From Trichoplax sp. H2 (lineage: Eukaryota): a stretch of 64,000 nucleotides of DNA. Positions 3,700 to 50,825 of the stretch are shown piece after piece (the first letter of the stretch is position 1; every line of letters begins with the position of its first letter). The notes under the pieces are model-generated. The model had not been told where the DNA came from. It did no database searches and saw nothing but the letters and a program-made list of their open reading frames with translations. The stretch covers positions 62,001 through 126,000 of the forward strand of contig NOWV01000121.1 of assembly GCA_003344405.1 (NCBI GenBank). Direction: 5' to 3'. Both the position numbers and the translations under genes were made by a program.

Positions 3700-5300
3700 C
3701 CGTCCACAGTACGTGCCACTGTAAAGTACGGTACACTGTACTGTACTGTACTGTCTGAACTGTACATTGTACAGTACAAGGATTTCCATCCTGGTACCGG
3801 TATCACTAATCTAGACCGAGTTGGGTTCGGTTCGGTTCGGTTCAATACCTTTATGATCTACTGTATATGACTAAACCTCGATCAAATTGCATTTCATCTA
3901 ATGTTGGAGTTAGCAAAATGAGCAGTAGTACAGCAGGCACTGTGCTTATCCTTATTTTTGGGCATGATGATGGTGATAAGATACTACAATTCGAGCTAGC
4001 TAGCTAATAATTAAGTCATAGCAGTGATTCATCTCAGAAATTCAATCTATTCTCCATTCATATCATTCCTACAACATGATATCACAGAGGGAATTGGATA
4101 ATGGATATGTTGATGAGGCGATTTCATGCAGTAGTTACAATCACTGGTGTAGTACAGACGGTATGCCTTCTTCATGCCTGTACTGCAAGTGTCAGCATCT
4201 ATCAGCATGGAAATAAACGGCTTAAAGTGAAACTGCAACTCTCACAGTGTGCTGATGTACTGTCAGGGACTACTCAAAATCGTAATTAGCTTCCTGGTAG
4301 TATCGTATACGGTTTCATCTCTAACGTAGAGTAGAATGATGGAAAAAATGATCAACCTCCACATTATTTTGCACTGTGGTCGTTTCCTATCCCATCTCTT
4401 TTCTTTTGGAGTAGTCGCTGGTACTGTACAGTACTGACTTTTCGATTATGCCGTGGAAAAGAACGAGAGAATCACCGTTTTAGTATCCACATGGACTCTA
4501 CTCAATACTGTACTTGCAGCAAACCTATTGAACAAGGGGGATGTCATGATGGCTACAATAATACGGTAATAATATTCTATTCTATTACGCGTGATTTGCA
4601 TAGGTAGATGTATATGAACAGTACATGGATACTCTGCATTCATCAATATTATCATGTAGAATAATGTCCGTCTTCTTACTGCCACACAGGACTCTTTTCC
4701 TTGATATCGATCTCATCTTCATCCTCTGCATCCTCTACCCTACGTGTCCTTCTCAGTTTATACAGTTACAGTATCACACCCTCTACAGTGTACAGTGTAC
4801 AGTAGTATATCTTCTGATTATACAGTACTGTACTGTAGAGACCAGCGTTGTTGATAATGTTGAATGTTATGGCAAAATTTACTGTACATGTATTCAAAAT
4901 GCAGACCAAAAAATCGAGCTTTGTTGAAATCTCTATGACTGTAATGGACTGTATAGTGTCTAATACTCTAAACTCCTTTTGCATGTGGAGCATGTCCATT
5001 TCCCGTCCATTCTGCAGATCTTCTCACCTTCATAAAATCTCATCCTCTACTGTACACTGTACAGTACACTACGTGTCATTCTCTGTTCGCACCATACAAG
5101 AGTTAACAAACTATAGCACAGTATAGTTATACAGTATCACACATGGTACTGTATGAACAGTACAGTGTACAGTGTACAGTACTGTGCCTTCTAATTGTAC
5201 TGTGCTCTGTACTCTACAGTGTACGGTGTACAGTATGGAGTGCCTTTCTACGGTATGTTGTACTGTACTGTACTGCACTGTACCATGGGCTGCATTTAAA
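3700..5300. repeat. TACAG/CTGTA pentamer-rich patches in the TDRKH/MCCC2 divergent interval
   Basis: Runs such as gtacactgtactgtactgtactgt (~3731) and dense patches at ~4785-4835 and ~5045-5285; they generate spurious YCTVQYSTV ORFs. Confidence 0.8.
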
Positions 5301-5435
5301 ATACTGACCAAAGTATCATAGCTTGTTGAAATCTCTATGACTGTAATGGACTGTATGGTACTCGAAACTCCTTTTGCATCTAGAGCATGTCAGTTTCCGT
5401 CCCTCTGAGATCTTCTACTGATTGAAATCGTCAAC
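4896..5435 (+). repeat. Diverged ~140-bp direct repeat (4896-5043 and 5298-5435) upstream of MCCC2
   Basis: Identical 34-mer ttgttgaaatctctatgactgtaatggactgtat at 4921-4954 and 5323-5356, with alignable flanks (aaactccttttgcat...agcatgtc...agatcttct). Confidence 0.9.
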
Positions 5436-5469
5436 CAAACCCACTAGAATTGATTAGGCGATCAAGACC

Positions 5470-8400
5470 ATGGCTACCATGAACAGATTGCAGAGGTGTA
5501 CAATTCTTGGAAGATCTTTGATATCAAATAAAAAGTTACTCGCTCTTAGCTATCATGACGAGAGTAGATCCAGTGTTATTCCATCAACTGTGGTTACCAA
5601 TTCTAGTGAGTACAAGGTCAGTTTGCAAGGATATCGCTTTGTCTGATGAGAGCGAATTCATGGTTGTAGAGTATGTTGCCAATTATGCATTACTTCGGTT
5701 CAATGCAGATAGACTGCAGTAATTTGATCGACCACTCCCAAGAAAGAAGTGAAAGCTTCTAGCTTGCTTTACCACTTACAAGTTGCAATCTTATTCCTTA
5801 CTTTAATTCCTATTAGTAGCCTTTTAATCTGGACCAATAGTTTGCTTTCATCAAATTACTTATACACGTACGCGTATACTTTGAGTGGACAGTAGAATCA
5901 GGATAGCGGGATGCAGTATTTGACGTGTACGACGTGCACTATATCGTCCTCATCAAAGATTCTCTACTTTTGTAGAAGGTCTGTCGTTCTGTACAGCCAA
6001 AAACAAGACGAGCAATATACTACATTAACTGTAGTAAACTTAAAAATAATGCAGTAATTAACTTCTATTGCTTAATCTGCTATCTATCTTCAAATGAATC
6101 TGATATTAGGAAAACTACTCACAAATGAAATCTGTCGTTGATGACCTACGCCAAGTGGTGGACAATATTAAACTAGGTACAACAACTTTATACAACTGTT
6201 ATAAATTGTCGTTTTGATATTCTTATTAGAGTATAAATATACAGTAGGAGTGATCACAACTGAATATTGTATAGTCTATGCATACGTCATCACTTTAGCT
6301 AGTGATTTCTATTCTAAATCCGCTGCCTCTTTAAAAGTCCCTATTGATGCATGGACGCGTAGATGCGTATTCAACAGCTAGCATTATTGTTATAATTGAG
6401 AAGAATGAATGAATTCTCTTAAACATCTAGCTACATGCATAAGATGCAATAGCCTTTGTACCATCAACAAAATATATTAGCGGCTAATCATTTTAGCAGT
6501 GCAGTAACTGTTGGCTTGCGGCTGCAAACCTGCTCGTAAAAGCAGAAAAAAGTGCGACACCAAATTACTGTACGATCCATTACTATTGCGCGTTCACACA
6601 TCTGATAATACTATCGTTTAGAAACATTCAAAGTTTTACAAATATCCGTTGATATCGCCAAGCCCATAGTGCAAAAGTATGCATTTGCAATACCCTCTAA
6701 GTTTATGCGTACTACGGTAGGAATACTTAGAAATCTTTATAGATACGCACAAAAACTTGCTTGATTATACAGTATAGTCTATAGCTATTTTATAGGCACG
6801 AAAATCAATTTTATATTAGTATATATAGGCATCAATTTGTTATTTAATTTATCTTAAGGCGGAGGAGAAAAGGCTAGGCAACGCCATCTGTCGAAGAATA
6901 AGCTACTGCCGCGCGATCGCTTAGATAAACTTATTGATCCTGGGTAAATCTCAATCCTTCACCATGCTAATTTTACAAAATTTCTATAGACGCTTTACTC
7001 ATTAGCCATATTATACGTTGTTTTTCAATCGATGTTGGGATGGTATGATTTTCCATGAATAAGTTCGCCTTTCCTTGAGCTATCTCAACTCGCTGGACAT
7101 AAATGCTACGGTAAAGAAGAAGTTCCAGCTGCTGGCATCGTCACAGGAATCGGCCGTGTCTCTGGGTATTACATTTATCTTATGAGTCATTTTACGTTAA
7201 AATGAATACAATAAATAATAATCTATTAATTTCTATTTCAGTTTGGCTCAATAAGTATTTACTTTCTGAAATTTTGCGTTAAAACACCTAAATAATGTAT
7301 CATTACTAATATAGAGCCGAATGCGTAATTGTTGTCAACGATCCAACTGTCAAAGGAGGTACCTACTATCCATTAACAGTTAAGAAGCACCTTCGAGCTC
7401 AAGAAATTGCTCACCAAAATCAATTACCATGCATTTATTTGGGTAAATTTATGGATCGATCGCTATCGTATAACTGTCACTACATTACATTTTACTTCGC
7501 ACACCGAATGAAAGTTCGCTAACATAATGAGTTATGATTGTCTCAGGCTTTCTCTATTGCTCTATGGCCTGTATTTATTATTTTTCAATACCTTCATAGT
7601 TGATTCAGGTGGAGCAAATCTACCGCGCCAAGATGAAGTATTTCCTGATGTTGGCCATTTCGGAAGAATATTTTACAACCAAGCTAACATGTCTTCTGAT
7701 AGAATACCACAGGTACTAAAGACGGCTTGTATCTAGGTGGACCTCAAATGTTCCCTTAAAGTTTAACGCAAAGTACTGAGTTATTAGCGTGCAGTATCTA
7801 CTTTCAACAGTTTATGTCGATCAACTGATCGCACGCAACAATACTTTACAGTGTATTTAATTCGCATATCCTAATGTAACCTTATGAAACTTGACCATAG
7901 CTAAATATTTTTAAGCTTTACTATATCTCTGAACCTAAATCGATCTTAATTAATGAAATATACAGAAAAAAATTCAATACCGTACGTGATCTGAATACAT
8001 CCTATTCTTTACTAGATGAAATAATGACCTTGCAACTTGCTTACTGTTCGTTAAAGCTAGTGGGGATAATCTACGTACGCAATCTAAATGAGCAAACATC
8101 TCTTTATTAGTTGAATTATCTGTCATCAGGTCATGCAATCGATCATCGGTGTTAGGCCGGTGTACTATAGGTCCAATAGCTGCTAACACCTAGGTGATAC
8201 CTATTTCGTCTATCTATGAAACTGATTACTATTTTATATAGTTTGATACATCGTAGTGTCGTATTCTTACTTATCCCCTCTAATAATACTTGATCTAACA
8301 TTAAAATACATATCTGAAATTTGAAGGTCGCTGTAGTATTAGGTTCGTGTACTGCCGGTGGTGCTTATGTGCCTGCTATGTCTGACGAAGTAGTTATGGT

Positions 8401-10620
8401 TAAAAATCAAGGAACTATATTCCTGGGTGGACCTCCGTTGGTAATATTTTAGATAGCACCTTATCGATAAATTTTGTATATCATACTATCTTAAGATACA
8501 GTATAGCTAAATCTTTAATCACAATATTTAAATTGATACATTGTATAAATTCATTCATCTAGGTCAAAGCTGCCACTGGAGAAGTCGTTAGTGCTGAAGA
8601 ACTCGGTGGAGCTGAAGTTCACTGCAGGTGAACATGCTACTGTATAGTATCAACGTTAATTAAAGTAAACTCCAACCCGGCATCATTCACTCATATACTT
8701 GTGCCTTTTAATAGCGTTTCTGGAGTGAGTGACCACATGGCAATGGACGACGAGCATGCGTTACATATTGCTCGTCAAATTATCTCTAATTTAAATTATA
8801 AAAAGGAAGTTCAAGTAAGTATCAGACGTTAAATGTGATTTCATTTATATCAACTCGTTTTAGATTCTTATCATAGCTTATCATTTCTGTAATTGCTTGA
8901 ACATAATTCACTATGAGTTTTAAATCCATTAAGAGCGTTATGCAGCCCCCTGAAAAACCGGCCTATCCATCGGATGAAATTTACGGCATAGTAGGAACAA
9001 ATCTGAAGAAAAGTTACGATGTTAGACAGGTATTAAGTTATAATGTTTACAACACGCAGAACTATGTAAGAAATAATCCATTGCTGAAAATGCGAATATA
9101 TGATGTTAAACATATTGTACACCTTTCACAAATTATATATCTATGTTGTAATCCTTCAATTATGCCAATCATTTACAAACAATTGGATATTACATAAATT
9201 TAGGTTATTGCAAGAATAGTCGATGGTAGTAAATTTAACGAATTCAAAGCAAATTATGGCAAAACATTAGTTACAGGTTAGTTGATAAAATAAATAATAA
9301 TTTACAGATAAATTAATTTTTGATTCAGTTATGGTTATAGTCATCATCCCGCCTATAGAATAACTGAAACTGTTCTTCATATATCTTTAGGATTCGCACG
9401 TCTACATGGATACCCAGTTGGTATTATTGCCAATAATGGTATCCTATTTTCAGAATCGGCACTAAAGGTATTGACAAACACGAAATATCGATATCAGCAG
9501 TTTATGCATATCACATAATCTTCATTTTCATGGCATGATAGGCTACACATTTTATTGAATTATGCTGCCAGCGAGACATCCCTTTAATATTTCTTCAAAA
9601 TATTACTGGTAGGCTATCGCATTTATAATTATATCTTGCTTACTGTAGTTGAAACGGTGATAAATCAAAATCTAATCGCAGTATATACATACGTTTTGAA
9701 CTTCTATTCACTATAGTGAAATGTGTTGTAACAGTCGTCTGATTTTTGTTAATATTTAGGATTTATGGTAGGGAAAGAGTATGAAGCAGGTGGTATTGCA
9801 AAGAATGGTGCTAAAATGGTTACCGCTGTCGCTTGTGCCAAAGTACCAAAATTTACTGTTATTATTGGTGGTAGTTATGGAGCCGGTAATTACGGCATGT
9901 GTGGTAGAGCCTACAGGTAACCATACTCTACAAGTCTAGTTCTGAACATGATTTCATAAAAGCGAAAGATTAAACAATAGGACCTATAAGAGCCGAATAC
10001 GAAATGTAATACTGAATTTTAAAATAATACCATTTATGCGCTTCTTCAGTCCGAGGTTTTTATTCACATGGCCAAATACGAGAATATCGGTAATGGGAGG
10101 AGAACAAGCTGCAAACGTTCTGGCTACTGTCGCAGCGGATCAGAGAAAACGTGAAAATAAACAGGTAACAAAGCCAAATCCTTTAGCCTCGACATATTGT
10201 ATGTATCAAATATTTATTGCATTTACAGCATTAGAATATTCTAATACAAGCTTACTTTACGTCGATGTAGTGGACAGAAGAAGAAGATAAAGCTTTAAAA
10301 GAGCCAATTATTAAAAAGTATGAGAAAGAAGGACATCCATACTATTCATCTGCAAGGTACTTCTAACTAATATTACCGTTTAATAAGAATGATTTAGTGG
10401 ACTAACATATTGCATACTGTACATCGTGGAGCAAACAAATGTTCAACTATATGTTAGTTCAGGCCATAGTGTTATTATTTATTGAAAACATTCCTATTTC
10501 AGGTTATGGGACGATGGAGTTATCGATCCATCCGATACAAGAACTGTTTTAGGATTATGCCTAAGTTCAACTTACAACACGTCCCCGCAGAAAACTAAAT
10601 TTGGCGTATTTCGAATGTAA
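5470..10620 (+). CDS. MCCC2: Methylcrotonoyl-CoA carboxylase beta chain, mitochondrial
   Basis: 17 phase-consistent GT-AG exons: 5470-5616, 6110-6176, 6859-6943, 7064-7165, 7315-7442, 7600-7712, 8327-8440, 8563-8627, 8715-8814, 8934-9029, 9204-9276, 9391-9467, 9542-9608, 9760-9916, 10050-10164, 10271-10356, 10503-10620. Motifs [49 protein letters not shown] and C-terminal FGVFRM. Confidence 0.97.
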
Positions 10621-11483
10621 ATTAGGACATACAATAGACGAAATTACGATTATAATTTTCGTTAAATTGAAATTCACAAGCTATATTTTGGACATTTAAT
10701 ATAGAATGGATTAATATGCAGTATGATCATAGTTAACATAAAGATGTTTCTTGGTTAGAGTTTCACTTTGTGTTATTTACATGGAAAATTTTAAAATACA
10801 TACTGAAAAATTTTGATGGCCAGTACGATTTCATGCAATAGAGATATGTACTGCAATTACTGTCGCTTATTGCAACTACAGTTTTGCTAACTGCATTTAA
10901 GATACTAAAAATAAAATTGTTTATCAGTTTTATTAAATATTTTGCTGTTGATATCGGTTACAGTAATAAGTAGTAGCGCCAATTATACCCTTCTACTTAC
11001 AAACAGCTGAACGTAGTCTTTCCAATAGATTAAATCAAAGCGTAATTTGTCTACTTTAAATTAAATTCCTTTTTGAATTCCTCATAATCTATCTATAGAC
11101 GCTACTCTTACTAACCAATCACTCCTTCGTAGTTAATTGTATTATTTACGCGGTTAGAAATTTTAATATGGATCGATTTGCAGATCAAAGGTATTGCATT
11201 GCAATGTAACTTCATTGAGAACAAGTTTATTACAAATTTTCGAAATCTTTTAAAAGACATAAAAAGCAACCGATTCGGAAATTGCTAATATACAAGAAGC
11301 TTTACACTTTTCAACGGTTAACTGACAGAAAATTCTTACTTTTAATAATTAACAAATTATTTATAATCTGTTAATCATTCCGAATATCACATTCAGGCAA
11401 CCTTAAAATCTCACATATTTGATTAATAGAAATACCTACTTTAATGTAGTCCAACTGATATATGACACGTTTACTTTAACAAA

Positions 11484-14400
11484 TTAAATTAAAGTCAGCG
11501 TATATTTATTCTTTTTACCGTGAGCGTTGTAGTTATTAATTCGAACCCACCTTACCATGAAAATGATCATTCCAACGACTACTATACATACAATTGCAAT
11601 TGCAAAACCTTTGTTTGGTTCTTGAGATGTTACAACAAAATCGTTAAGAAAAATTGCCTGAGCATAATTTGAAACTGATGAATAGCTGTATACATCATCA
11701 TAACTACGTATAGCAAACACATACGGTTTATTTAAAGCAATCTGCTCAAATTTAATTATTATTCTTTCGACACTGCCGGCTGATTTGGGTAAATCTAATC
11801 TAGCGCCATTGACTATAGATGATAAACTACTATTAATTAGACTTCCTTGATTAAAATCCGCGGTAAATGACGTGAAGTTATTGCTCATTCTCAATTCATA
11901 ACCTTGAGCTATATCAACAAAAACAAACTCATCATTTCTATGGGAAAATCTGTAAGCGTATATGTATTAACAAAATGTAAGAAATAAGTGGTATCTCAAT
12001 GCATAAAATTTGCTGTAGCAATATCAATCCAGCGCGATAGTTATTGTAAACTTACTACAATTCCTGTTGATCTACTAATAGATTTCGATTACAAAGCTGT
12101 CAATATCAAAATTCAGCCTACCTGTGCCGGTATCCATATCACTACCAGGCGCGGTCCATTGCAGCGCAATTGTAGCATTACGATAGTTAACTTGTAGGAC
12201 AGTAAGATCATGAATGCGACACGGAGGGTAGTTATCGATAGCTGTAAAAAAAATTTGAATACAACCAAATATATTATTTCCCCTCATAATGATGACTATT
12301 GATAATTTTATTGTTGAAGACCAACGTTGTATGTACCAAAATAACAATAGTAATGGATACATTATTTCATAAGTTCTAATTAAGACTTTAATTTTAGCGT
12401 TACAATATAGGAAATTAGCAAATTTGACCAGGTAAGATGGTATGTATGAAACAGTAAGGATAATAATATTAGAATGAATTAATGTATTATGACTAAATTA
12501 CTGTTACGAAATTTTTAGACCTAACTAAAATTTACCTACAAGAATCTTGCATTAGTGAAGATATTTCTGTAATTATTAAAATTAACAGCGCCCTGCGCCC
12601 TGTAGCTATGGTTACCACTTTATTACAATTTACTATGTAGTAGACCAATTTTAAGTTTTACAGCATAAAACTTAATCGGTCTTCTGTGTAGTCGTTGCCT
12701 CGTTGGCATCAATTTTTAAACGAGTATAATCAGTACTTATTTATAGCAATATTGCATACGGACATCAATAACTACAATATAATATTCCCGATATAAAGTG
12801 AAAGTAGATTTGCAACATTGTCCTCAAGCGTTACCTGCAGTATAGTTTATGACGTAAAAGCAATGGCCCGATCCCATCCTAGTAAAGCTTTTCAAGTATG
12901 TGATAGTTTTGTTGACTTTACCCACAACAGCAGAAGCAAAAGTAGTATCGCTGTTCGGCAATCCAACCATTTGGTGCGTATCTGTTTTTGTTAGATTAAC
13001 AGTTCCTGTTACAGTAACCAACATACTATAGCGTCCATTGTTGGAATATTCCGTAAAGTAGGCCGAATAAATACCATCATCTTTAGTAATATCTGCACCT
13101 GTGATAAATAAATTACAAGAGGTAAAATTAATCTTATAAACAAAAAAACAGTTACCCATGCAAAAATTCAACCGATCTTAACAAATGTCACAATAAAGTA
13201 TCACCGTAATGCGGTAATGAAAGTTATCACTATAGATGACTCTTAAAATCGAATAAGTTGCCCACAAAAACTGTACTTATATAATTAAATGCATAAAAAA
13301 TTTTAGAAAGCTGGACTTTCCAGAAGGTTTACGTTAATTTCCTTTGATAGAGTGCACTACCTGCTCCATCGTCTCGAAAGTTTATTCTACTTGGTACATT
13401 AGTAGATGGACGAGCTACTGTTCCAGAAACTTGGCATCCGACCACAGCTAAAAATCCTTTTCGCACTACTACCGACAAAACCGTCTAAATTTGAATTATA
13501 TGTCGCATTACTGAGGCTGCGTTACACATATCATTTAAACTAAATCTTGAAATATTAAAGAATAGACTTGATACACATTTACGTATACAGTAAATGCTAA
13601 CCGGTTGCGGAAATGATATCTGAGATCCATCCATCTTTAATTGCATGGTTAACGGATAATTATCTGCAATAAGAGATGCTCTAGATAGTAAAAAAACTGA
13701 AATTCTACGAGTAGGTGTTCCAACCGAATCAGGATTTGTAACCTCAAACTTCCAACTCCCAATCTAAAAGTATAAAAAAAGGTATATTATAATACTAAAC
13801 ACCAAGATGGTATTTAATGACAGACACGTATATTAGTTACCAATGGAAATTAAGTCTAAATAATAACGATATCCGGTATTACGGTACGTTATTGACACAT
13901 ATTATTGTCACTATATGAGCTTACTTCTGTCTGGTTAGGGCCTAAATAAATCCTGACACGCTGATACACATTATCCACTGTGTACTCAGGTGAGAAAGGA
14001 GTGTACTCTTTGCCGGTTGGGGATGTCAATATAACCCGTACAGACCTTCCTTGATAAATAACCAAAAATTCGGTATAATTCCCAACGTCATTATCGATAA
14101 TAACTTCCTGTTGCGAGCTAACACCACCACTTAAGAAGAATTCGTTACTATACAGCTAACGAAAAATACAAAAGTCGTCAGTGTTACACTTATTATCTTA
14201 TGTCAACTTGGTATAACATTCATTCCATGGCAAACGTATATTTAACCGCTGACGTCGTTAGTTCACTAACCTGAACGAGTCCATCCAGATTTGGTCCAAT
14301 CAACAACAGATCGATAGCCAACAGGGTATCAACTAAAGCCTGGGGACTCCCATAAATTGCATAGTAAGATTTACCTCGACTTATTGTAGCAACTGTTTCT

Positions 14401-35598: not shown

Positions 35599-38533
35599 TT
35601 AAGGTTTCCACAAACGAAGCTGACAATCTTCACTGAATGTGCAAATGATATTTTGATGCGGATGATGCTCCACTCCAATAACATCCTTGTCGTGTGCCTA
35701 ATTGACCAATATTCACTATCTTTAGTTTGGTGTTATTGAAATAATAATTGCAATCAATCTCAAAACTGGAGCTTACCGTTAAAGTTCCTTCAAGCTTACC
35801 GCTTGTAGCATTAAAAAAGTACAACACTTTATCTTCACCTATACAATAAATCCACTCTCCTCTTGGGGATACAGAACAACACATAAAATCGCCACCTTCG
35901 CGTTTACCTGACGTAAAGCTACGAATAATCTAAGTATAACATTAAACATCATACATAACTCGTTAATACCACTTGTAAGTACATTTAATTATAATTATAG
36001 ATAATAAGCCAATCGATGAGTATAAATAGCAATGTACATACCTGTCCTTGAATATTCATAATCAATACAGTACTAGTACGGCTGCACACAATAAATTGAT
36101 CCACGCTACGAGGTAACAAAGCTACGGAATTTATTGTAATTTCTGTAGTGACATTGCCGATTGCAGGCTTGATAGTATTAAGGCATTCCGTTGTTTTCGT
36201 ACTCCAAATCTACAGTTTTATTAAAATATGATAACAGAAATAACGTATCAGCTGCTAAGCAAAACATTAAAAGACGCAACTTGGAAGGCCTACTTTAACG
36301 GTGCCATCGCTACTTGCACTAATAATTTGATGCCCGTCAGCACTGTAAATAGCTTTATTCACGAACGACGTATGACCGCGAAACTCTTTCAAAGTTTTCC
36401 CAGATTTCAAGCCATGAATTCTAAATGCGATTTGTTGAATTAAAATTTATCATCAGTTGATAAACATCTATTGCAATGATTACAATATTAGCAGTTTACC
36501 TAATTGCTTGATCAAACGATGCACTAAGCAATTGGCTTGAATCTCGAGAAAAACATAGTGATGTAACGCCTTTTGTATGTGCATGCTCAAACCTTCTCAG
36601 GCATTGACCACTTTGTAGTTTCCAGACCTACGTGAACATGATACAGTCTATTTAGCAGTTATCTACAACACTGCAGACCGCCTCTAATTATAGCTATTCT
36701 CAAATTAAGCCTGATATCGAAACTTTCTTACCTTGATCTTACCCCCTTGACTACCAGTAGCTAGCATCTCGCTATCTCTGCTAAAGCATAGGCACAATAC
36801 CGCGTCGTTCATGAGCATAAAGTTGTTCTAATTGAATGATATAAATGAAACTCAATAACCCTAAAAATAAAATTGTACCTTAGTTGATGATCGAAACCGT
36901 ATTACCTCAGCTTGATATTTTAAATCTTTCCTTATCTTTCCAGTGACGAAATTCCAGACTTCAATAAATCCATCAATTGTACCAGTGACCAAATATTGCC
37001 CGTCAGGTGAGAAACAAGCGCACTCTACCAGGGACTTTTGTCCAAACTGCGTTAAAAATATTTTAGCGTACGAACAGAAGGTATTAGAGAATCATTACAA
37101 AAGCTCATGAAATTGCATAAAGAATGCAGCTTAATCAGACCTTGATAGTACGATTTAATTGTGTAGGGTATTTCTCCTCTTCTTCTCCTTTTACAGATGC
37201 CTTTCCCCTGAAAACATCAATAGACGTACCAGGAGGTAGCAATCCCTGATGTTGTTGCCATTTGAGAGCCTGACCAATTAAAGCTAACAATCTAGATGGA
37301 GGAACCACCGTAACTTCGCTAGATAGGGCTGAATTTCAGATTCAAAGTTTAGTATCGAAGTATAAAAATTTATTTAAGAATATATCAATGTGTAAAACCT
37401 TGAGCTATAGCATGTCTTCTTTTTTCTTTGCTACTGCCATCAGGATAAGCCTTTAATTATTAAAAATATAAAATATACAATGAAGCCTAAAGAAAATACA
37501 GTACAGCAAGAACATACGGGTATTCTAAACAAAGTACTACTGGTAGTATAACATTGATATTGATACAACACTTGCAATGATTCATACTTCTTTAGAGTCA
37601 AAGTAAGGGCGTGCCAATAAATTTTCTAAGTGTAAATATCTATCCGGTTGCTGATCCTTAAGCTTAATCATTGGATCAGTTTGACGCAGCAATGAGCGAG
37701 CCGCTCCAAGTTCTCTCATTTCAATAAGGTCTATGACAATCTGTACAATGCATTCGTTAAAAATCCTTCTTTCTATAGGCCATGTTTCATTTCATTTACA
37801 AATACAGTAATTTATAATTTATACTATAGTAAAAGTGCCGATATAAACAGTACAATCGTGAATACTTTTTATTTATTACCTGCTCGTATAGGTCAATTAA
37901 CTTCTTATCCGACAAGCGCAGTGACTGAATAGCCTGAAGGACGCTATCCCAGTGTCCATTATGAATTTCTGAAACAAAACTTTCCACACTGTCTACGGTG
38001 TTGAGAGCAATTGCCGATTCCTCCTACACATAATTGCATAGACGTATTACCGACTGCAATAAAAGCTTCAATACGTACTTTAGATATAGCATCTACTGAA
38101 ATTTTTCGAAATTTATTTGCATAACTAAAACATGAAAGTGTTACGCGCAATTACTAGTACGAGAAGTTAATTTATATAGATACGTAGGCAGTCAATGTCG
38201 AGGATATTTATCAACGTTAAGGAAAACAGTAAGATACACGTAGCTACTTCATACCTGTAATGTTGCCAAAGAGCGTAGCAGATTATTCTCCTTTAGGTAC
38301 TGTTGGATAAGCCGAATGACGCTGCAATACGTATGCATATCATCAATTGAAAATAGATACGCATTGTAAAACATACATCTCGATATTTTTGCATTGCAAA
38401 TAGAACTTCAATATAAATAAACTATACTGTACTGGAGTATGCTATAGATATACTTAAGCATTCTATAAAATACAAAAGAAGATCATTTGAAGCAGGTGCA
38501 TACTAACTCGGTTGACTCAACTTCCAATGCCAT
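35599..38533 (-). CDS. SMU1: WD40 repeat-containing spliceosomal protein SMU1 (513 aa)
   Basis: 13 exons: 38533-38508, 38321-38255, 38023-37880, 37740-37588, 37450-37399, 37328-37141, 37046-36906, 36827-36732, 36627-36500, 36420-36294, 36209-36042, 35929-35777, 35697-35599. [21 protein letters not shown] (LisH), GHWDSVLQ, C-terminal LRLWKP. Confidence 0.97.
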
Positions 38534-38689: not shown

Positions 38690-39965
38690 GCAGTACAGTA
38701 TAGGGAAATAGCAGCGTGGACTCCTGATGACTCGCACAACTGCTGCTACTAATGTACTGTCGAGGTTTACGAGGTAGAGTAGACTAATACTGTAACGTAA
38801 TTTAGTGCACTTGTACGGCTCAGCTCAATCAATGTACAGTACAGTACTGTATGTAGACCTGAGAAAGGTTCGGTCCGGTTCGGTTCAATACCTTTATGAT
38901 CTACAGTATGTTTGTACAGTATGTACAGTACGATAGTACGATAGTTTATGATACTGGTACTGTACTGTACAGTGTACACTGTGTACAGTACAGTATGGAG
39001 AACAAATACAGAACGTACTGAACTGTACGAAACCTACAGTACAGTACGCAGTGATATCGTAGAATAGTACTGTACTGTCAGTCAGTCAGTCAGTATGGTT
39101 TGTCTATACGAAACCTACAGTACCGCACAGTACACCGTGATATCGTAGAATAGTCAGTGTACTGTACTGTACTTGTCAGTCAGTCAGTCAGTCAGTACGG
39201 TTTGTCACTAACCGTGTACTGTTCAACATCTTACAAACGCCATACTGTACAATGAAGCGTTTTGTAATGTGATCCATCTAAAATTATCCAATCGTTCAAT
39301 GCGTTAGCGTTATCGGTAGCGCAAAGCTACGTCATAGATTGATCTTTACTGTTAGGGATGTTATTGGTCTTGTTTTCTTGGAGTAATCATGCCCAGATTA
39401 GTGAGTCAATACTGACCATCGACCAGGGACTTCTAAAGACTAATATAGTATTAGACTTACTGTACAAGTCTCTGGCCGGATACTGTACTGGAATTTTCTT
39501 TATTAAGTCCGAATACAGTACAGTACAGTATGTAAATACTATAATACTACAGTACTGTACAGTATGTGCTGTACTGTACACTGTACAGTAGTCACAGAGG
39601 TAAGAAAAAAACCCCCGTACTTTACTGTACTGTGCACTGTAAAGTACAGTACTTATTACTGTAAGCGACGGACATCGGGGTGGCTGGAACTTTCGTAATC
39701 CAAAGTTAAACATTATAAAACGTAGCCATTATTATATTGACAAAGTTTCATAGTAACGATTACGAAAGTAATGCAGAAGGAGAGCAGNNNNNNNNNNNNN
39801 NNNNNNNTTATGGCTGGGCCTACTGTACTGTACACTGTACACTCAGTGTACAGTACAGTAGTCACAGAGGTAAGAAAAAAACCCCCGTACTGTACTGTAC
39901 AGTGTACAGTACGGTAGTGGTCACGAGTGTATTGTGCACTGTAAAGTACAGTACTTATTACTGTA
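38690..39965. repeat. TACAG/CTGTA satellite, (CAGT)n microsatellites and a tandemly duplicated ~80-100 bp unit in the SMU1/LRMDA divergent interval
   Basis: Pentamer runs at ~38835, 38915-39075, 39515-39590 and 39820-39950. Unit tacgaaacctacagtac...gtgatatcgtagaatagt...(cagt)n..ggtttgtc at ~39027-39105 and ~39107-39206. Confidence 0.88.
39788..39807. other. Assembly gap (20 N) flanked by duplicated sequence
   Basis: N run; ~39637-39787 is repeated at ~39939-40089. Confidence 0.95.
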
Positions 39966-40163
39966 AGCGACGGACATCGGGGTGGCTGGAACTTTCGTAA
40001 TCCAAAGTTAAACATTATAAAACGTAGCCATTATTATATTGACAAAGTTTCATAGTAACGATTACGAAAGTAATGCAGAAGGAGAGCAGCCCATATTCGT
40101 TACAGGAACTGTCCTTGTTGATGATGATCGTCATAGCCTTGTAGTACAGTAAAGTAGAAATAG

Positions 40164-42264
40164 ATGGAAGGTGAAAGACTGTCACTCGCCTATAAACATC
40201 TCAAAAAAATTCCGGAAAAATCGTTAAAAAACTTTGAAGATAAGCTGATCCATCTTGATTTAAGCCACAACAAGATCTCGTATCCTTTACATTGTATGCG
40301 TTTCTAGTAACTTGAACTAATTATAAGTACAATGAATACTTCGATTATACTTACGTTATGTTTATATTCGTCATAGCTATTGCGACACTTTATTAAGAAA
40401 CAATACTGTGATAGATACAGTACGCGACTTCACCTTGAGAGATGATTACTTTCTATTTCATGCTATGAGAATTGCTGTAAACTTAAATTTTTCCAATCCA
40501 TGAAAGAGAATGACGTAACTACTTTCTGCACAAAATAGTTTTATTTAAATATCAATTATTTATGACCAGCCAACTGCCACACTACCTCTCCTCGCTTTCT
40601 GCCTTTCAACTTGATCGGTAAATCTATCTTATCGCAACTGACCAGTGATCTCTCCACTAAATTGAGAAATCAGGCATTACAGTACTGAAGCACTACTCCA
40701 GTTTTCATTAAAGTCATTTACTGTGATTTACAAATTCATGGACTATTAAATACTAGTTGAATCCCGCTCATGATACAATACTTCGTGTACATGTACTGCT
40801 ATGTTTTAAGATGAATCCACACTAAAGGTAAAGTGCTTTAAAATTCGCTAGACGATCACGATTGATTTACTGGATTAGCCTATCACCGTTTGCAGGCGTT
40901 TCCAACTAGTAATAACTAAACACAGTATAATCGAAGAAAGCGCGTTCCTAGGCTCGTAAACAGTTGTAGTCCTTAGATCACCTAAGGGTACTTACAGGAC
41001 TTTGCCCTAAGATGAAGCTCAACTTTACAATTTTGCCATATTGGCATATTTATTGACTAGAATTGAACATGTACTGTACTGTACAACTGTGCAAGCACGT
41101 TACTATCCTAATCCCTGGCCGTTGATTATACACTAATATACAGTATTTGATACTTGCTAACTTAACGAATGCAACTCTCAAGTATCAATTTTCATTAAAT
41201 GAATGTGACCATAAATTCATCTAGAGGTAATTATCCGTCTTGCATACAAAATTATACAAATTACTTACTTAAAAGATATAAAAGTATAGGTATGGTAGCT
41301 AGAGATTAGGACAAGTATCCGATTTATCGTGTGTTTCTAAACTAAATAAGTCGTGTAGCCTAAATGCTGTTGTACGTTCAAAATTCAGTAACAGAGACAA
41401 GCACTTTCTTTAACTTTGCAACTTCTTAAAATCTAGCGATCTTAGAATCTTGGTACGTTTGAAGCAGCTTAGAATTCTAATTCTTGATCATAATCATATA
41501 AATTCTCAAATACAGTTTCCGAGTCATGAAATGCTAAATACCCTTTGGGTCAACCATAATGAGATAGGTTGGTGTGCCAGTGCCGTGCTGTATATTTTGT
41601 TTGCAATATTAGAGTATTCAAGACCTAGTTTCGTCTTCAATATTAGCAATTACATCAAGTAATAAATTCACTGATTTTTGAATGGATATTCCATTTAACG
41701 GCTTTAATTATGATAAAGATACTTTACTAAATTCACTAGTCGTACTAACAATATTCATAAATTTGGGGGTTGATATAATTAGAAAATTTAAGCATATTCA
41801 TCGAAAAAATCGCCAAGGCATTTCCTAACTTGAAATATCTGAGCATGATGAACAACCAGGCTGCTCCCAGTTACTTTAATGGTGGCACTTTGTACCAGTA
41901 TACAGATTACAGGTAAAAGTATGTGACAGTCTCAAAATAGTTATAAAGTTGTGCATAGCAAACCTTAAATGTACAATGTACATGTTCTCGTATGTGTTAT
42001 AATGATTTGTTGGATAAAGGGCACTTTTCGTACTTTATCGGTGGTAAACTGTATACAATTTGTTGTACTATTTATGTTATCGGTACTGAACTTCATTACT
42101 AATCACAACACAGACAGTACACCATCAGTCATCTTCCGAAACTTCTGGCTCTAGATGATATCACCATTACTGACGAGGAAAGATTTAAAGCGGAACAGAT
42201 TTATGGCAAGATAAGGTTTGATAGCTCAAAGAAAATGGATACCTGCGGCTATATTGACGCTTGA
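40164..42264 (+). CDS. LRMDA: Leucine-rich melanocyte differentiation-associated protein-like (C10orf11-like LRR protein)
   Basis: Exons 40164-40279, 41437-41567, 41783-41912, 42114-42264. LRRs [56 protein letters not shown]; LRRcap [18 protein letters not shown]. The start codon is tentative. Confidence 0.82.
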
Positions 42265-43019
42265 CTCAGAAAACGACTTGACAATTATATTAGCGATAAA
42301 ATAATTTTACAAGCTAATACTCCTTATATAGTATCAATATTCCCTATTTATTTAAAAGCGAAATTCAAATCAGAAATTACAATTATCTGTGTGATTTTAT
42401 TAATTTCCAATTTTAAAGAATAAAATACCTGAATTTTTATGCTGTGGGCAAGTGCTAAAAGCAGCTTAAATGAAATATTATGTAACAGCTATATATCGAA
42501 AGCATCAATAGAGTAACATTATCTGATTTATAAATAAAATAACATGCTGAAATCATTGTATTTGGATGGTAGTACCTATAATATGAAGATTTTTTATCAC
42601 AAGAGAATTTTACGATGGTAAATTCAACCTTATTTATTAAGTTGACGTAGTACCGCATTTTGTATGCAGGTACAAGGATTAAAATATTACTTCAAAGTAC
42701 AAATTTTACTATATCAGATCTAAAATTTACGATAATTTTAAAATTATATTTATTACATTATTGCAGAACACACTTGTAGTCAAGTTAATAATTAAAAGTG
42801 TTGTTCTATCGTTATCATTACCACTACTATTAGCCTTCATTATCACAATCTCATTTCAGTTTCTAATGACAGACAATCGATATCTGATTACATAATCAAA
42901 TGGGCAGCTTCGAAGTACTCTTACATGGAAGCAGCCTTAGCTACTCGCTAGCAGTTTAGTAATGAGATTTACATACGAAATCTATCGAACTCGCCCGACA
43001 ATTTTTTACTTCAGATCAT

Positions 43020-46000
43020 TTACTTGCCACGAGATTTCAAATTTATGTATACAATTCCAAAGACTGTAGATATGAAATAAGCTCCGCAAGTCCACCACGT
43101 AAAAAATGACATTATACCTCTCAGAATATCTTTGGAAAAGATCGTGTGCAGTGGTCTAAAAGCTATGGTATGACTTCCTTGCAGTAACTCTGATGAATTA
43201 AGAAATTTCTCTAATAATCTAAAAAAAACCGATGAACTACTTTCAACCTCAATAATCTTAAATGTCTCATCCGCCATCCACGAATATCCACCTGGAAGTG
43301 ACAGAAAATTAAAAGCCTCACAAATAATTTATTTAATATATAAGTCTACGATAATTATATATATAAATATACGTAACTAGTTGAAATAGAACAGCAACAG
43401 TGCATCGATTACCTAATGCCTTCAGCAGTAAAGTCAGATCGAAAATAATAATTACAGGCGCAATGTGTTGCGTTGCTGCGATGCAGAGATAGTGAAAGAC
43501 GTGATTGATCTGTAATTATGACAACAGATATAAGTTAGCGTCGATCGACTCTAATGCGTTGTATCATCAGATTTTATCAATCGTATTGCTCTACGATGTA
43601 AGGAATGGACAATGTATATCAAGGAAAACATACTAATACATCTACATTACATTACATTAAAGTGTGCATACAATTAACGAATTGATATTTTTTAAAATTA
43701 CCGCCTTTCTAAATTCAAGGTTAGTAATTTGCTGTACTTCTTTCTGAAAATTTTCTGCCTTGTCTAAGGCAGTGTCTAAATGTGCTTGCAAGTAAGATTT
43801 TATAGAGCTGAACCGTAGGATACTCAAAAGAATTAATATTCCCAGTCTCGACGTATTAAATGTTGCATCTTCAGCACTAAAAAAATGTCTATGTGAGTCC
43901 TCGAGAAAAATAAAATTCGATAATTAATCTATAGGCTTACAAAATTCTTGATTGGTTTACATTTGTGGCTACCATGGTATCTCGGGCTAAGGGTTTGACC
44001 CAAGACAGAATAACAATGAAAGGTAATAGCAGGCTGATTTGTGCATTTAACCTTGAAAGTAAGGTACGCGATCGTTATTACGATTAACTACTTTATACCA
44101 CCTATAAAATTTATAGTAAATACCATGTAGCCGATGACCAGTCTCTGACAATTTTCGAGTGCATTTTCGCCAATCTTAAGCTCGGAAAGAGGAAGACAGA
44201 CCCAATTATAGCAGAAAGCACAGAAATGATGATCTTGACTAAAATGGGAGCTGCTGGGGTACTATACAACGTAAATTATAAATCTACTTTTAGCAATATT
44301 AACTTTAATCACTAGCATCACACAGTATATAATGTGCAATGCAGTATATAGCAGTTGCGCTTTTAAACCTTGAATTAATCAATCGGGTGGTATTTCTATT
44401 GAGAGAATCATAAACTGCCATGAGAAAAGGAAATAGATTAGTAAATGCCACACTTAATTCCCCTTTAATTTCTTCAAATAGGGAGTAAGTAAGAAAAAAT
44501 TGTAAACTCCGATTTCTTACCATATGATAAACCAAACTCTAAAATAGTTTCATCTACTGTTAAGACAACCATGCAAAGCAAGAAATAAACTGAAGCAAAG
44601 ATAATACACATCGAGCTTTCACCGCCGTCCCCAATTCTGAAATATACCAACGTCAGAGAGGAAAGCGATTTTCTATTATGCAACTTAAGTTAAAATAAAC
44701 ATACTCTGATCTTTTCTGCTACACAGCAAAAACACACAAGAAATATACTCGTTGCCCAGAAAAGTAAATACGAATGAAACTCCTAGTGTAATATTATGTA
44801 CAGTCCACATATTCGTTAAGTAAGTCTATTTAATCAATTCAGGATACAATGCAAAAAACGCTGAGAGCAGTAACCAAACGATGCTGAGATTCAGTTCATT
44901 TCCATAAGCAGCCGGTTTAAGCCAAAAGTATAGTTCCGATATTGAAAATATCATTAGGGAGTATATAAAAAAATCAACTATCCAAATGAAATCTGCGCTG
45001 TAGTATAAAGTCAATATTTCGGCTGTATTAGCCTATTCTGACATGAATGGACAAGGCTATTTGTTAGTTACCATCCAGCAATGTAAATGTTTTATCATTG
45101 CAACACAATTGTAACTTAAATCAATATTTAACATTCTGACCTCCGTGGGATAAACGTCGTAGGAAGCATTCTTAGGTAACTTAAATTCCTTAGGTACAGC
45201 TCGTGAATTAAGCTTTTTCCTGCATGGATTTAATCATTAGCAAATAATATCATAAAATTATATATAATCGACAAGTATAGTTTATTAATTTATCATCATA
45301 AAGCCCATGATTGATCTAATTGCAATCGGATGTTAAAATTTGCTTTATATTAACAAAATGTGCATAGTTTACAATATCTTGTACCTTTCCCTCTGTGTTA
45401 ATTTATATTTACTCTTTGCAGTACTAGAGAGTTCTCTATTACTATTGGTGCAGATATCCCATAATGCTTCGTCTGGAGGACATATGTATCGAATAAGTCT
45501 GCATAAAATGTAAATCACAGGTTAAAAGTGTAATCAAGGACTTACGCGCAGCTTCCTGTTGTCCTTTACTCTAATGAACGTATAGTTCAAGGACTGTAAC
45601 GTAATAAGTGAATTTGATATCTTAGATTACGTCTTATACTGTACGAGCATACCCTCGTCCAATAATCCACCGTCCAAATGAATAATAAGGACTAAGTCGT
45701 CGAATTAGAAAGGAAGCTAGTACGGTTGTCACCAATTGAAAGCCTAGCAAGGCCTGCAGTTATAATTAAATAGCAAAGTAAGTATATTGGTTTAGTTCAA
45801 CGATCAGAGATTTCATCAAGGACCTCTTAAAAGTCCGGATTAGTACACATGTCATTGTTGAACGATTACCCTATTGACGATGCACCAATGCTACTTGCAG
45901 TGCATTACACCACTATCACATACCTAAAGATCTTCATGGTCTGGACTTTGCGATTCTACTGTACACCGGCTGTACAAATACAGTACAATTTGCAATATAC

Positions 46001-46219
46001 AGCACAACAGCTAAACGTACACTACTATATCTTACTTTATAGTACTATTCAATCAAACCAGAGATTTCTGCAATAATTAATTAATTTTTAAAAGGTCGTG
46101 GCTAAACCTAAATTAATAAATACACAGTAGCTACTTCTACAGAGTGGAGCTTTACAATGACATAATGCGGGATTAACAGATGGAATTGCATATTCTCATG
46201 TTATCTTTAAGCTTACCAT
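43020..46219 (-). CDS. TMEM161B: Transmembrane protein 161 family member
   Basis: ATG-only first coding exon 46219-46217 (ATG|gtaagc), then 45753-45653, 45498-45385, 45219-45141, 45032-44848, 44672-44521 and further exons to the stop at 43020. MALLGFQLVTTVLAS, LNLSIVWLLL, GDGGESSMCIIF, LRGIMSFFTWW match the TMEM161 family; A versus B cannot be resolved. Confidence 0.9.
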
Positions 46220-46364
46220 CACTATGCTCTCTACGTTGCAGCGTTTGCTTTATACGGATTTGCGCTTTTGAACAGGTAAAAGCCGGAGCTAGCAACACTT
46301 ATTTCATTTCAATTTCGCAGAAAATCAGTAAAAGATTAACTACTTTTAGGTGGACAGCATAGCA

Positions 46365-46470
46365 GAGTACTCTTGCAGTCTTTGTACTCTACTGTACAGA
46401 CTGTACACTGTGTATAGTACAGTACAGTACAAGTCATTACACTGTACTGTACAGTACAGTACTGTATAAT
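46365..46470. repeat. TACAG/CTGTA patch immediately upstream of TMEM161
   Basis: actgtacagactgtacactgtgtatagtacagtacagtac...actgtactgtacagtacagtactgta. Confidence 0.8.
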
Positions 46471-48021
46471 AGGCTACAAGAAATTCCATCTCTCAAGAGT
46501 ATCCTAACCAAAAGGAGTTTTTGGCTACATTGTTGTAACAAAAATTTTTAAAGCATGGCGATAGCACTCGGCAATGTGTAAAAATAGAACTATGGCATGC
46601 ACATTGTACAGTAGGCTACTATCAGTAGCCCCAGTCAAAATACATCTAGTGATTTAATGCAAAATGCAGAGGGGTAATGCGCGGCAGAGATTTACAGTAA
46701 GCGTGTCGCTCCACATGACTCAATGTTGTGTCCGTGTAAAAAGGAATAAAGCCTAATCTATGATAAATGCCTAGCTGTCAAATTACAGCACTAAACTGGG
46801 TAAATTTGCATACTGTAATACATACAGCACAGTGTAGAAGACAAATGACCTTTTTCAATAAGATAATAATAAAAAAATTACATACCCTAACTGTTTACAT
46901 CATAGTGAATGAATGATATTATCCCGCTATGCAGCAAGTATACCGAGCCCCATTGATTTAGACCTTTAGGTCTTTATAACCTAACATGCACGAGTATATA
47001 TATTCGCATATTTAGCCTTGCTTAAAAAACATGCGATATGTACACCTGCTTGCACTAGATGCAATAGTCGAAATCTACAAGTCAAAGAGTAACGATTGAT
47101 AAGACTACAGCTATAACCAGGATCTCGTAGCATTTATAGACAATGCATATACTGCATATATAATGGTAGCTGTTTGCGTAAAAGTTTCGAATAAATATTA
47201 CGAAACAGTAGTCACTTGTAGCACCCATAACAGTAAATTAAATTAAAACACGTGTAAAGTAAATCTCAGTAATGATAATCCAGGCTCTAAGCTTTTGATA
47301 TGCAATACTCTACTGTTATAGTGAGGTTAGTGACCATGTCCAGATGTTCTAAATCACTGTAGGCCACAAACGATTTTAATTTCTTAATATATAAAATCGC
47401 AACTTGAATTTGCCACATACCCAACTTATCTTTGAAAGCAACAAATTTCAATAGATAAATTTATTATAACCGCACAAAGCAAATACATTTCGATAAAAAT
47501 CTATAAACGGAGATAAATTCAAAGTGAAATCTCAGCCCATAAACTCATGATGTACTCCAAAAGTCTTTAATCTTAAATAAACCGTTCCTAATGAATCTTC
47601 ACCTTACAGAATAATAAATTTTATTTGCTATGTTGCACATACAGTGAAGTATATTATTAATAAAGTTACAGTTATGACTACGTGTATAATATTACTCAAG
47701 AATATAGTAGTACTTAGAAAATAAATCATAAAAATCTTTTTACCAAGTAGAGTAAAAATATACGTTCAAAATTCTGTATAAGGTCTTTTGCCTCCTTCTT
47801 GATTGCAATAGCCCGAACTATTCAATTGGTACTGCTGTATTCTACTTCGTAGCAAATCATGATGCATGAATAATCATGACAACTTCTTAAATTGGACTAT
47901 TACTGCAAAATGCTGATATGAAGTACTGTACTTAGTATGCTGGACATTTACATATAATGATACTAAAATAAAAGTAGTACCTTGAAAAGATTCGCATTTA
48001 TAACCTTCCATAATTTAATTT

Positions 48022-50058
48022 TTATGGATCCCTACTTATACATTTGTCATATACAATTGGATTGTCAACGCAAACTACACTGAAATGCTTCTGGTTCGGA
48101 TATCTTTTTTTTGTATCAGGACATAAGCATGGGATTGTTAAATGTTTTTGCCACACCTTACGATCACAATACATTCCAAAAACGTCACGTACTCCTGAAT
48201 TGACGGTAGCAGTCTTTAGATTCATCAGTCTTGGAGACACTAACCATCCAGGCTTAGCCTGTAATAACCAAATAAGCAAGATAATCAATACTCAACAAGT
48301 GTCTCCTGTTACACTTTTTAATTTCTTATATAAAGCTTTAATTAATTAAAGTAGTTCAAAATTTTCTAAGTTAAGACAATTAACCTGCAGTATACGTCGC
48401 TTCCTGCCGTCACCACTCTTCCCAAGTCCTCTTTCGCCAATGTGCCACATGCGACCAAGAGTGGGGACCACGACATTATGTCGCCCAGGCCACATCCATG
48501 CAATCGCTTCAGACCAATCATTAGTCTTACTTGCCAAAAACTTTGAATGGTATATTGCTTGCCATATTGAAGCATTAAAAGAGTAAGCCATACCAGGAAA
48601 GTAAAGCATAATTCTAAAGTAAATATCAACGTATTATTTATACATGAGTGAATAATATCAAAAGCAATCTGTTTATACTAGTACATAATATACGTATAGT
48701 ACTGTATAACGTTATTTGTCGAATCCTTAGTAGTTAATATGAGCATTAGCGAAAGAATTGACATCGAAGAATATTCGTAATATTTGATCACTAAAACAAT
48801 ATCTGCAACGCATTACCAGCTTGGCTAACACTTTAACTGTCTTCAACTTACAATATATACTAATAATTATATATATATATATATATATGTATAACATCTA
48901 TATAATGGATAGCAGCATTAAATTAAAAATAGCCTTTTACAGTACATAGTTAGTATTAGAAATACTGCTGCTGCTCATTCAACTGGTAGAGTTAGTTACG
49001 GAAGAACCTGATAACGAAGGTATCCGGGTGAGGATTTACAAGGTGTTCTCCTGACCATCCTCCCAAACCAACAGCAATCGTGTTCGGATTAGAATTTTTT
49101 ACTTTTAACATAAACCATATAGCTTTCAAGGCATCTTTGGATAGTTCGATATCATCTTCTAAAAATAGAACGTCTCGCTGATATTTATAGCCTAAATCAA
49201 AAATATCTAAAAACTGATTATTAGAAAAATATATCCACATACCAGTTCATTTACTGATTCATTGTAAAATGCAAGAATATAAACTGTGTGTCTAGCAAGC
49301 CTCAAACATAAACAATAGTATTATTAACATTATATCCTTTTTACCCCAGTACATAAACGTTTACTTATCGTACAGTATCTGCAATTGTTAAAATTACCTG
49401 AGCTCTCAAATACTAATCTCATGATATTGTACCATTGCCTTTTATACTCTTTAGCGTTGCGTTTCTTACTTTCTGTAAGAAATGTCTTGGCTTTACAAAA
49501 CTTGACATTAGCTATAATGTCCTTTGTTTTTTTTACATCTTGAGTTGATACCACGGGAGTTTTTTGACAAGCAAACAAGCAAACGCTGGCAGAACTTAAT
49601 CCCTCTATTGCCTTCAACGACTTTATTAGCCGTTCCATATATGCAGGTCGGTAAGAACAAAATATGACAATCGGGATTTTGAAGTTACGAAATTCAAGTT
49701 CATTAGAGGTGAGACTCTCACTTTTAATGCTGCTGGTGCTGGAGTTTTTTACAAGATATGTTGGTGTAGTCTTGGCATTAGGAGAATACTGGTGTTTGAC
49801 CTTTAATTTACCATTATTCGTGATAGGGGTACTCTGTACCTTGGTTCCTTGAAACGTCATTCCCACTTCATTTTTCGATGAACCTTCCTTATTATGCTTG
49901 TCTAAATGCATGACAATTTCGTCATTTTTTCTTTCCACAACGTTTGTTGTTGCATATTTGGAGGTAATTTTTCGATAAAGTGTTGTCGGTACTAGTAAGC
50001 AAGTGATTATCAGTAATCCTTGCAAAAGCCGTGTACTTTTCATTAGTACGCCTGACAT
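48022..50058 (-). CDS. Type II membrane glycosyltransferase, GT13-like (MGAT1/POMGNT1-related), paralog A, ~441 aa
   Basis: Exons 50058-49398, 49206-49008, 48613-48385, 48258-48022. N-terminal TM, Ser/Thr-rich stem, PIVIFCSYRPAYMERLIKSL, LFLEDDI (EDD metal motif), FPGMAY, VVPTLGRMWHIG. Confidence 0.8.
48868..48888. repeat. (TA)n microsatellite in glycosyltransferase A intron
   Basis: tatatatatatatatatatat. Confidence 0.9.
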
Positions 50059-50069
50059 CTATTCACAGT

Positions 50070-50825
50070 TTATACAGTAGTACAGTGATGAAAGCTACAA
50101 TTAAATTATTATTTTATCGCGTTGGAAATTAGAAACCATCTTTCCTGCCAATTAATTCGACAGTTGCACAAACTGGTACAGTACAGTACCAGTTCTCTTC
50201 TAACAGAAACGTGTACTGTACTGTACACAAGTGCAGTTACGTCACGGTCCCTTTTGACTACGTCAAAAGGAAAACGCTGCAAAGCATCGGCTCCTCCTAG
50301 ATCTGAGAACGGTTCGGTTCGGATCGTTACGATCTATGCCTCCACCACTACAATACTGTACATTACAGCACCATGGACCAGAGAGTCACCCACCATTTGT
50401 GTGTGTGGACTGGACATTCCTCGGACTGTCGGACATTGTCCAGTACAAAACTGTACACTGTACAATTTCGCTTTGGACTGTAGACGATTTTGTCTTTTAC
50501 TGTACTGTACACTGTACAGTAGACTGATATTTTAGAATAAGCATTACGAGTAGCGTACAGTAATTGTATCAACTTGTATAGAAGCTCAACTCTCTAGCTA
50601 CATAATGGTATACGGTATAAAGTATAGTAATTTTACGTTAGTTTCAGTAATATTTTTTCCCTTTTTCGCAGTCTGAAAGAAAATAAATACATCGTACTGT
50701 AGACAGAGCCATTGGACCAAGCCACTTCTGAATTCCTTTTTCCCATTAAACCTCTTATTACAGTACTTTACGCGTCCTTTTTACATTGTACTGTACTGTA
50801 TTGTACTGTACAAAAGTACAACAGC
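50070..50825. repeat. TACAG/CTGTA patches in the glycosyltransferase A/GTF2A2 divergent interval
   Basis: Pentamer runs at ~50072, 50175-50228, 50440-50522 and 50785-50812. Confidence 0.75.

Follow-up and report, generated by a model that had tools for sequence, protein, structure and literature searches.

Left-end stubs of an apparently extinct hAT-like transposon near Trichoplax promoters

Three motif copies and the genes beside them

We analysed a 64,000-nucleotide stretch of the Trichoplax sp. H2 genome (contig NOWV01000121.1, positions 62,001 to 126,000; hereafter the window, to which all coordinates without a locus label refer), in which an earlier note had described three copies of a motif built on GGTTC and ending in GATCTA upstream of three unrelated genes, and had read it as a lineage-specific core-promoter or transcription-factor module or a domesticated short element. 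The copies are present at the places claimed, 3812–3860, 38854–38903 and 50298–50336, all on the plus strand. With at most one mismatch, GGTTCGGTTC has 9 matches in the window against 1.04 expected, 8 of the 9 inside the three sites, and a profile built from genome copies minus the window loci picks exactly these three sites (E 3e-16, 6e-11 and 2e-9) and has zero matches on the reversed window sequence. We argue that each copy is a stub, probably the left end of a longer transposon, comprising a terminal inverted repeat (TIR), subterminal GGTTC repeats and an inverted TIR-like site running to GATCTA, and lying between the two copies of an 8-bp target-site duplication (TSD). In all three, the first base of the right target copy is complemented and 6 of the other 7 bases match, in copy 2 only once later CAGTA/CTGTA modules are removed. 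The features are as follows.

3804..3811, plus strand: copy 1, left target-site copy, 8 bp, CACTAATC
3812..3860, plus strand: copy 1, left-end stub with degenerate TIR, GGTTC subterminal repeats and inverted TIR-like site to GATCTA
3861..3868, plus strand: copy 1, junction made of a later CTGTA module, TA (the stub tip) and T (palindromic base or 1-nt overhang)
3869..3876, plus strand: copy 1, right target-site copy, GACTAAAC, base 1 complemented and 6 of 7 others matching
38831..38853, plus strand: copy 2, left target-site copy split by three CAGTA/CTGTA modules, AATGTATG after, and dependent on, their removal
38854..38903, plus strand: copy 2, left-end stub, near the commonest form
38911..38923, plus strand: copy 2, right target-site copy with one CAGTA module, TTTGTATG after, and dependent on, its removal; base 1 complemented, 6 of 7 matching
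50290..50297, plus strand: copy 3, left target-site copy, GCTCCTCC
50298..50338, plus strand: copy 3, a shorter left-end stub followed by T and a single palindromic G
50339..50346, plus strand: copy 3, right target-site copy, CCTCCACC, base 1 complemented, 6 of 7 matching
3423..3425, minus strand: likely (predicted) start codon of a TDRKH-like gene
38531..38533, minus strand: likely start codon of SMU1
50056..50058, minus strand: start codon of a 242-amino-acid first exon, called glycosyltransferase A in the earlier note

The minus-strand ATGs at 3425, 38533 and 50058 lie 387, 321 and 240 bp from copies 1, 2 and 3, in line with the ~390, ~320 and ~240 bp given before. KH and Tudor domains fit the TDRKH-like name and the homologs of the second gene are named SMU1, but no Pfam match backs the glycosyltransferase. 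That gene (48000–50058) and a related minus-strand gene at 56800–59600, with exons 72–75% identical and likewise no Pfam match, are a putative glycosyltransferase and its paralog. A plus-strand carboxyl-transferase gene probably starts near 5470 (predicted start codon), so the gap holding copy 1 beside the TDRKH-like gene is divergent. Nested tandem repeats of 67 bp and 306 bp occupy 51413–52486.

A dispersed family with scarred target duplications

The three copies belong to a dispersed family of what are apparently hundreds of left-end relics of an extinct cut-and-paste transposon. In the genome searched (95 Mb, rich in ACAGT repeats), the first 21 bases gave 71 exact matches against 0 in the control, the first 16 bases with one mismatch gave 196 against 5 (the 100 listed places among these 196 were followed), and the 3′ half, searched in two forms, had 53 and 41. 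Blindly chosen regions totalling 237 kb held 2 independent copies, corresponding to ~800 genome-wide (95% range 97–2900). The resulting set has 158 distinct starts, with 124 left flanks that are independent; 80 of these reach GATCTA (core copies), while 44 TIR-only copies, mostly 16–30 bp long and mostly without a TSD, stop short and may be more heavily resected products. Stub length is 31–66 bp, mostly 40–55 bp, and varies with the number of GGTTC units. At five loci (L114, L118, L046, L085 and L155) stubs have been amplified inside tandem repeat units of 150–600 bp, and at L029:1400-1620 two inverted stubs, the second abutting the target copy of the first, look like a local product of alternative transposition.

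Target duplication was measured by comparing positions 2–8 of the 8-mer left of each element with the bases right after it, with shuffling as the null. In the raw sequence, 22 of 74 independent core copies match perfectly at these positions (shuffle mean 1.1), and 17 of the 22 carry the complement at position 1. With CAGTA/CTGTA modules set aside before a second count, 41 of 80 core copies match at six or more of the seven positions (shuffle mean 2.3, maximum 8) and 20 at all seven (shuffle mean 0.22, maximum 3). The first base is complemented in 20/20 perfect cases, and across the 41 it is complemented in 33, the same in 3 and another base in 5 (null fraction 0.19). When 30 copies are anchored on the last five bases, position −6 is identical in 25 and −7 in 24, −8 shows the complement in 26 and the same base in 1, and −9 does not differ from background. 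Among 17 unused copies held out from this work, 14 had a locatable left end (3 were dropped, and the script misplaced the start of one that was kept); all 4 perfect matches are complemented, the 8 copies at 6/7 or better divide into 6 complemented and 2 same, and 6 of the 14 show no duplication. The complement-bearing copies favour T at position 2 (18/33, P = 0.009) and A at position 7 (21/33, P = 0.0003), each against 0.33, a bias that is weaker over all 80 copies (36 with T at position 2 and 39 with A at position 7).

Both parts of this signature have precedents. An 8-bp duplication of form nTnnnnAn is the Hermes/Ac pattern (PMC10368747, PMC3878927), and in Ac/Ds, flank hairpins give rise to footprints centred on the complement of the base beside the element (PMC5873905, PMC1978519). 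An 8-bp duplication with a hairpin footprint indicates that a right end formerly lay beside the second target copy and was then cut out. Since MULEs (Mutator-like elements), Transib and RAG also leave a complement base, the scar by itself is not specific to hAT elements. Insertion of a longer element, often into open promoter DNA, thus duplicated 8 bp of target, and the scar is what would be left if its right end had been cut, the flank closed as a hairpin, and repair had retained the complement of the first target base; we hold these two steps together to be very probable. The earlier note had proposed looking for target-site duplications, and it is these scarred 8-bp ones that were found. 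A TA target duplication, as in a Tc1/mariner reading, was dropped when the 8-bp duplication appeared.

The 47-bp unit might instead be a mobile micro-MITE (MITEs being miniature transposable elements with inverted repeats) that uses the inner inverted site as its right end, as TIR-like sequence at both ends and the many copies could suggest. Direct insertion would give perfect TSDs, however, and the original first base is retained in 0 of 24 perfect matches after module removal, which is not the identical duplication of a MITE; longer left ends further show a parent extending past 47 bp. We find this reading hardly credible.

The CAGTA/CTGTA modules, found in the window at 3861–3865, 38837–38851, 38904–38908 and 38917–38921 and also at many other loci, sit inside target duplications and at the TA tip of the stub, and taking them out restores the duplications. 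They therefore came later than the transposon. Their placement supports TA-anchored insertion of ACAGT units, without identifying what writes them.

Longer left ends, the inner break and candidate histories

Left ends of 67–165 bp exist, and six of them (L106, L123, L153, L024, L115 and L100) share sequence past GATCTA for up to ~150 bp. Tandem paralogs without the insert occur at L021/L022/L094, L123, L136 and L112, in two of which a tip of 22–26 bp replaces flank sequence. The earlier note had held that copies embedded in a longer ordinary transposon would count against a promoter module, and the 8-bp duplications, longer left ends and empty paralogous sites together point to just such an origin. 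Of the short TIRs (10–25 bp) that a hAT element has at both ends, the left one (~17–22 bp) is clear, and a paired right TIR is seen only in a 67-bp two-TIR piece (L100) and, in degenerate form, in L115. In searches for the parent, the sequence beyond the stub had 3 matches and a later motif had 4 (1 in the control), and there was no exact match in metagenome or viral contigs. In contigs of four runs, the extended left end at L106:700-2500 has only ~2–3x single-copy depth, and no element-skipping joint or empty allele was seen there, a weak negative at one locus outside the window as contigs show presence and not absence. A different, very high-copy repeat follows directly after this longest left end (L106:1628-~2000, also in L090 and L175), with summed contig depth above 1000x single copy at L106:1615-1675; its terminus reads CTAG on the minus strand, which we take to be Helitron-like.

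A parent that was Mutator-like, or another flank-hairpin transposon, could have had the same history. MULEs form flank hairpins and are able to generate 8-bp TSDs (PMC5499845), and Mutator TIRs have been reported at placozoan promoters by Kim et al. 2025 (PMC12221973). MULEs also have long TIRs and mostly repair precisely, more than 90% of Muta1 excisions being precise (PMC5499845), whereas here the TSD is fixed at 8 bp with an nTnnnnAn bias and the TIR is ~17–22 bp, not above 100 bp. Measured against a Mutator-like definition (TIR above 100 bp, TSD of 8–10 bp), the TSD length is compatible, and no long inverted partner was seen. A parent that was Mutator-like, or of another flank-hairpin kind, is very unlikely.

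An exact account as continued element sequence plus palindromic bases is possible for 20 of the 33 complement-bearing junctions; in 18 of these the element runs on for 2 or 3 bases after GATCTA, in one for 4 and in one for 1, and several lack microhomology. The tip of an in-register, inverted TIR copy lies two bases beyond GATCTA; this copy matches at 12/17 positions in L106, tied for best along the longest left end (binomial P 3e-4, uncorrected, with the position fixed independently by the junctions). A hAT cut with Hermes chemistry leaves the tip, or the tip plus one base, on the element side. An element-side hairpin at the junction (an internal left end) was rejected because it fits at most 2 of 33 junctions. 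The uniform break at the inverted TIR tip, with so few element-side hairpin signatures, favours a transposase cut at a decoy end, and these junction sequences suggest that an internal inverted TIR-like site was cut and joined to the hairpinned flank. The same enzyme may have cut this site, its tip ~47 bp inside the left end, and end joining may then have fused the inner tip to the opened hairpin and deleted the sequence between, much as in a V(D)J hybrid joint, in which a signal-type end is joined to the hairpinned flank from another cut and the intervening DNA is deleted. A stable DNA hairpin or structured RNA was also rejected: five copies fold at z −2.0 to +0.1, and the AAAGG/CCTTT and AACGG/CCGTT variants do not covary (32, 28, 12, 4).

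The same junctions could also arise by abortive gap repair, in which the element is excised, the left flank copies back ~47 bp from the sister chromatid, stalls, and is joined to the hairpin-opened right flank. Abortive gap repair occurs in Ac/Ds, it would yield the same complement base and perfect left junction, and stubs of ~20, ~47, ~75, ~87 and ~150 bp all occur. Homology-dependent repair of transposon donor sites is also known (PMC5499845). The break is nonetheless held to a window of 1–3 bases even without microhomology, those fold energies reveal no strong fold-back able to stall synthesis, and mirror right-end stubs with a TSD are essentially absent (7 of the 44 TIR-only copies match at 6/7, and 4 of those 7 look like degenerate core copies), which makes this route unlikely.

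Alternatively, a single-ended cut at the right end could have been followed by nuclease resection of the element, halting at a protein-bound left end. In Hermes, the left end is bound by several BED domains and the right end by none (PMC10368747), and L115 resembles a right-end cut and rejoining with a damaged left tip. Resection protected in this way is improbable, given that the break follows sequence and not distance from the tip, as the 31–66-bp stubs with differing numbers of GGTTC units show.

Internal cutting at a decoy end thus remains the history we favour: hAT (Ac-type) insertion, scarred excision, an internal cut and stub survival, in which short stubs would have been tolerated while full elements vanished and TA-anchored CAGTA/CTGTA modules later landed in the stubs. 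We regard this whole chain as fairly probable, and lean slightly towards its central proposition, that a hAT element carrying a decoy end inside it underwent self-truncation across the genome through a reaction like that of hybrid joints.

Several observations weigh against it. No recognisable TSD is present in 39 of 80 core copies or in the 6 held-out ones; the clean 20/20 requires module removal, the raw count being 17/22; 13 of the 33 complement-bearing junctions are not exactly explained; and the proposed route does not account for the 44 TIR-only copies. The inner inverted site matches at only 10/17 in L100 and L153 and falls outside the top five in a third long copy, and a second, equally good site (12/17), 75–80 bp from the tip in L106 and L123, is rarely used. 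The sole 67-bp two-TIR piece has no TSD. The sequence searched yielded neither a full-length parent nor a TIR-flanked transposase, and five hAT-domain genes, which carry BED or hAT domains, lack this TIR within ~10 kb, apart from one 5-mismatch match treated as chance. Finally, the fifth base of the TIR is C in 71 of the 80 copies, T in 7 and G in 2, a departure from the G of the hAT TIR consensus, which begins (T/C)A(A/G)NG. Because no transposase is attached and that consensus fails at base 5, the family behaves like a hAT relic but is not proven to be a member. As a single suggestive case, L024 breaks ~2 bases short of the tip of the second inverted site. The hAT-derived genes (L129–L133; G000 C186, C230 twice, C907 and C464) include at least one with a Pfam BED finger and by eye mostly lack a full DDE triad, making them candidate domesticated ZBED-like proteins.

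Promoter context and comparison with known systems

Core copies are concentrated in ACAGT islands (60/80 against 15/113 controls), and ACAGT has been linked to gene starts (PMC2871265). Flanking genes point away from copies 52:26 against 64:60 in controls (P = 0.04). Gene strand was taken from a codon model and not from mapped start sites; the model placed most window exons on the right strand with a few visible errors, about half of copy sides gave no direction call, and Pfam matches were obtained for 26 of 80 top segments submitted. An order-4 coding model was too insensitive and was replaced by the codon model.

This enrichment upstream of genes, with housekeeping genes among the Pfam-confirmed neighbours, is what a lineage-specific core-promoter or transcription-factor module would predict. 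Yet the shared orientation noted earlier stands only within the window, where three out of three has P = 0.25: genome-wide, 25 core copies have a gene pointing away on the TIR side and 27 have one on the other side (P = 0.89), with 23 versus 23 at a stricter cut-off, 9 versus 8 in held-out copies and 5 versus 6 with Pfam-confirmed genes only. The nearest diverging exon lies anywhere from 13 to more than 1800 bp away. Without orientation bias or fixed distance a core-promoter module is not supported, and the TSDs and empty paralogs indicate insertion. Nor is the inner part more conserved than the TIR (5.9% versus 5.4% divergence), a weak comparison as both were used in the searches. What survives of the earlier proposal is a short repeated element enriched near promoters; a promoter module as the origin of the copies is largely refuted and, in our estimate, extremely unlikely. 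Insertion into open promoter DNA explains the enrichment without function, and the stubs are most likely inert. That self-truncation left TIR and GGTTC sites at several hundred housekeeping promoters, now bound by a TIR-less BED/hAT-derived host protein as orientation-free regulatory or looping sites, is a speculation to which we give little credence.

What is new here is most likely a family of hAT-like relics whose excision scar is unusually uniform. Hundreds of former insertions and excisions at promoters are preserved in it, and because just one end and a scarred duplication remain, it is invisible to annotation based on TIRs and TSDs. It supplies a large collection of natural junctions left by hairpin repair in an animal of an early branch, a case in which the use of an internal cryptic end by a transposase can be tested, and dated TA sites that later took up ACAGT modules. 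It is also a warning not to treat promoter-enriched motifs in placozoans, or automatic 'Mutator TIR' calls there, as regulatory modules.

Trichoplax has been described as nearly transposon-free, with one MITE family of ~20 copies (PMC2871265), and none of three motif strings is present in the supplements of that paper that were covered. In the literature consulted, itself seen in part, we found neither this family nor one-sided hAT stubs on such a scale described before; Repbase's five Trichoplax non-autonomous DNA transposons (Jurka 2009) and the PMC12221973 motif were not compared. That Mutator TIR motif at placozoan hubs is, like the stubs, transposon-end sequence enriched at Trichoplax housekeeping promoters, but the stub TSDs point to hAT (PMC12221973 for the motif). 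hAT-derived MITEs such as the BuT2 MITEs are also short non-coding derivatives near genes; they keep both TIRs and identical TSDs and move, whereas each stub has a single true end and its TSD is scarred (PMC3942097). Hermes/Ac-group hAT ends share with the stubs a short TIR, short subterminal repeats and an 8-bp TSD of form nTnnnnAn (PMC10368747, PMC3942097, PMC3878927), and differ in having an attached transposase gene, a true right end and the consensus base 5. V(D)J hybrid joints serve as an analogy only, the internal cut in the stubs being a proposal. The scar itself resembles Ac/Ds footprints, which show the same complement of the base beside the transposon end, short palindromic additions and microhomology joins (PMC5873905, PMC1978519); in Ac/Ds both flanks are hairpinned and no element DNA is left, whereas in the stubs only the right flank is scarred and a stereotyped 47-bp left end stays.

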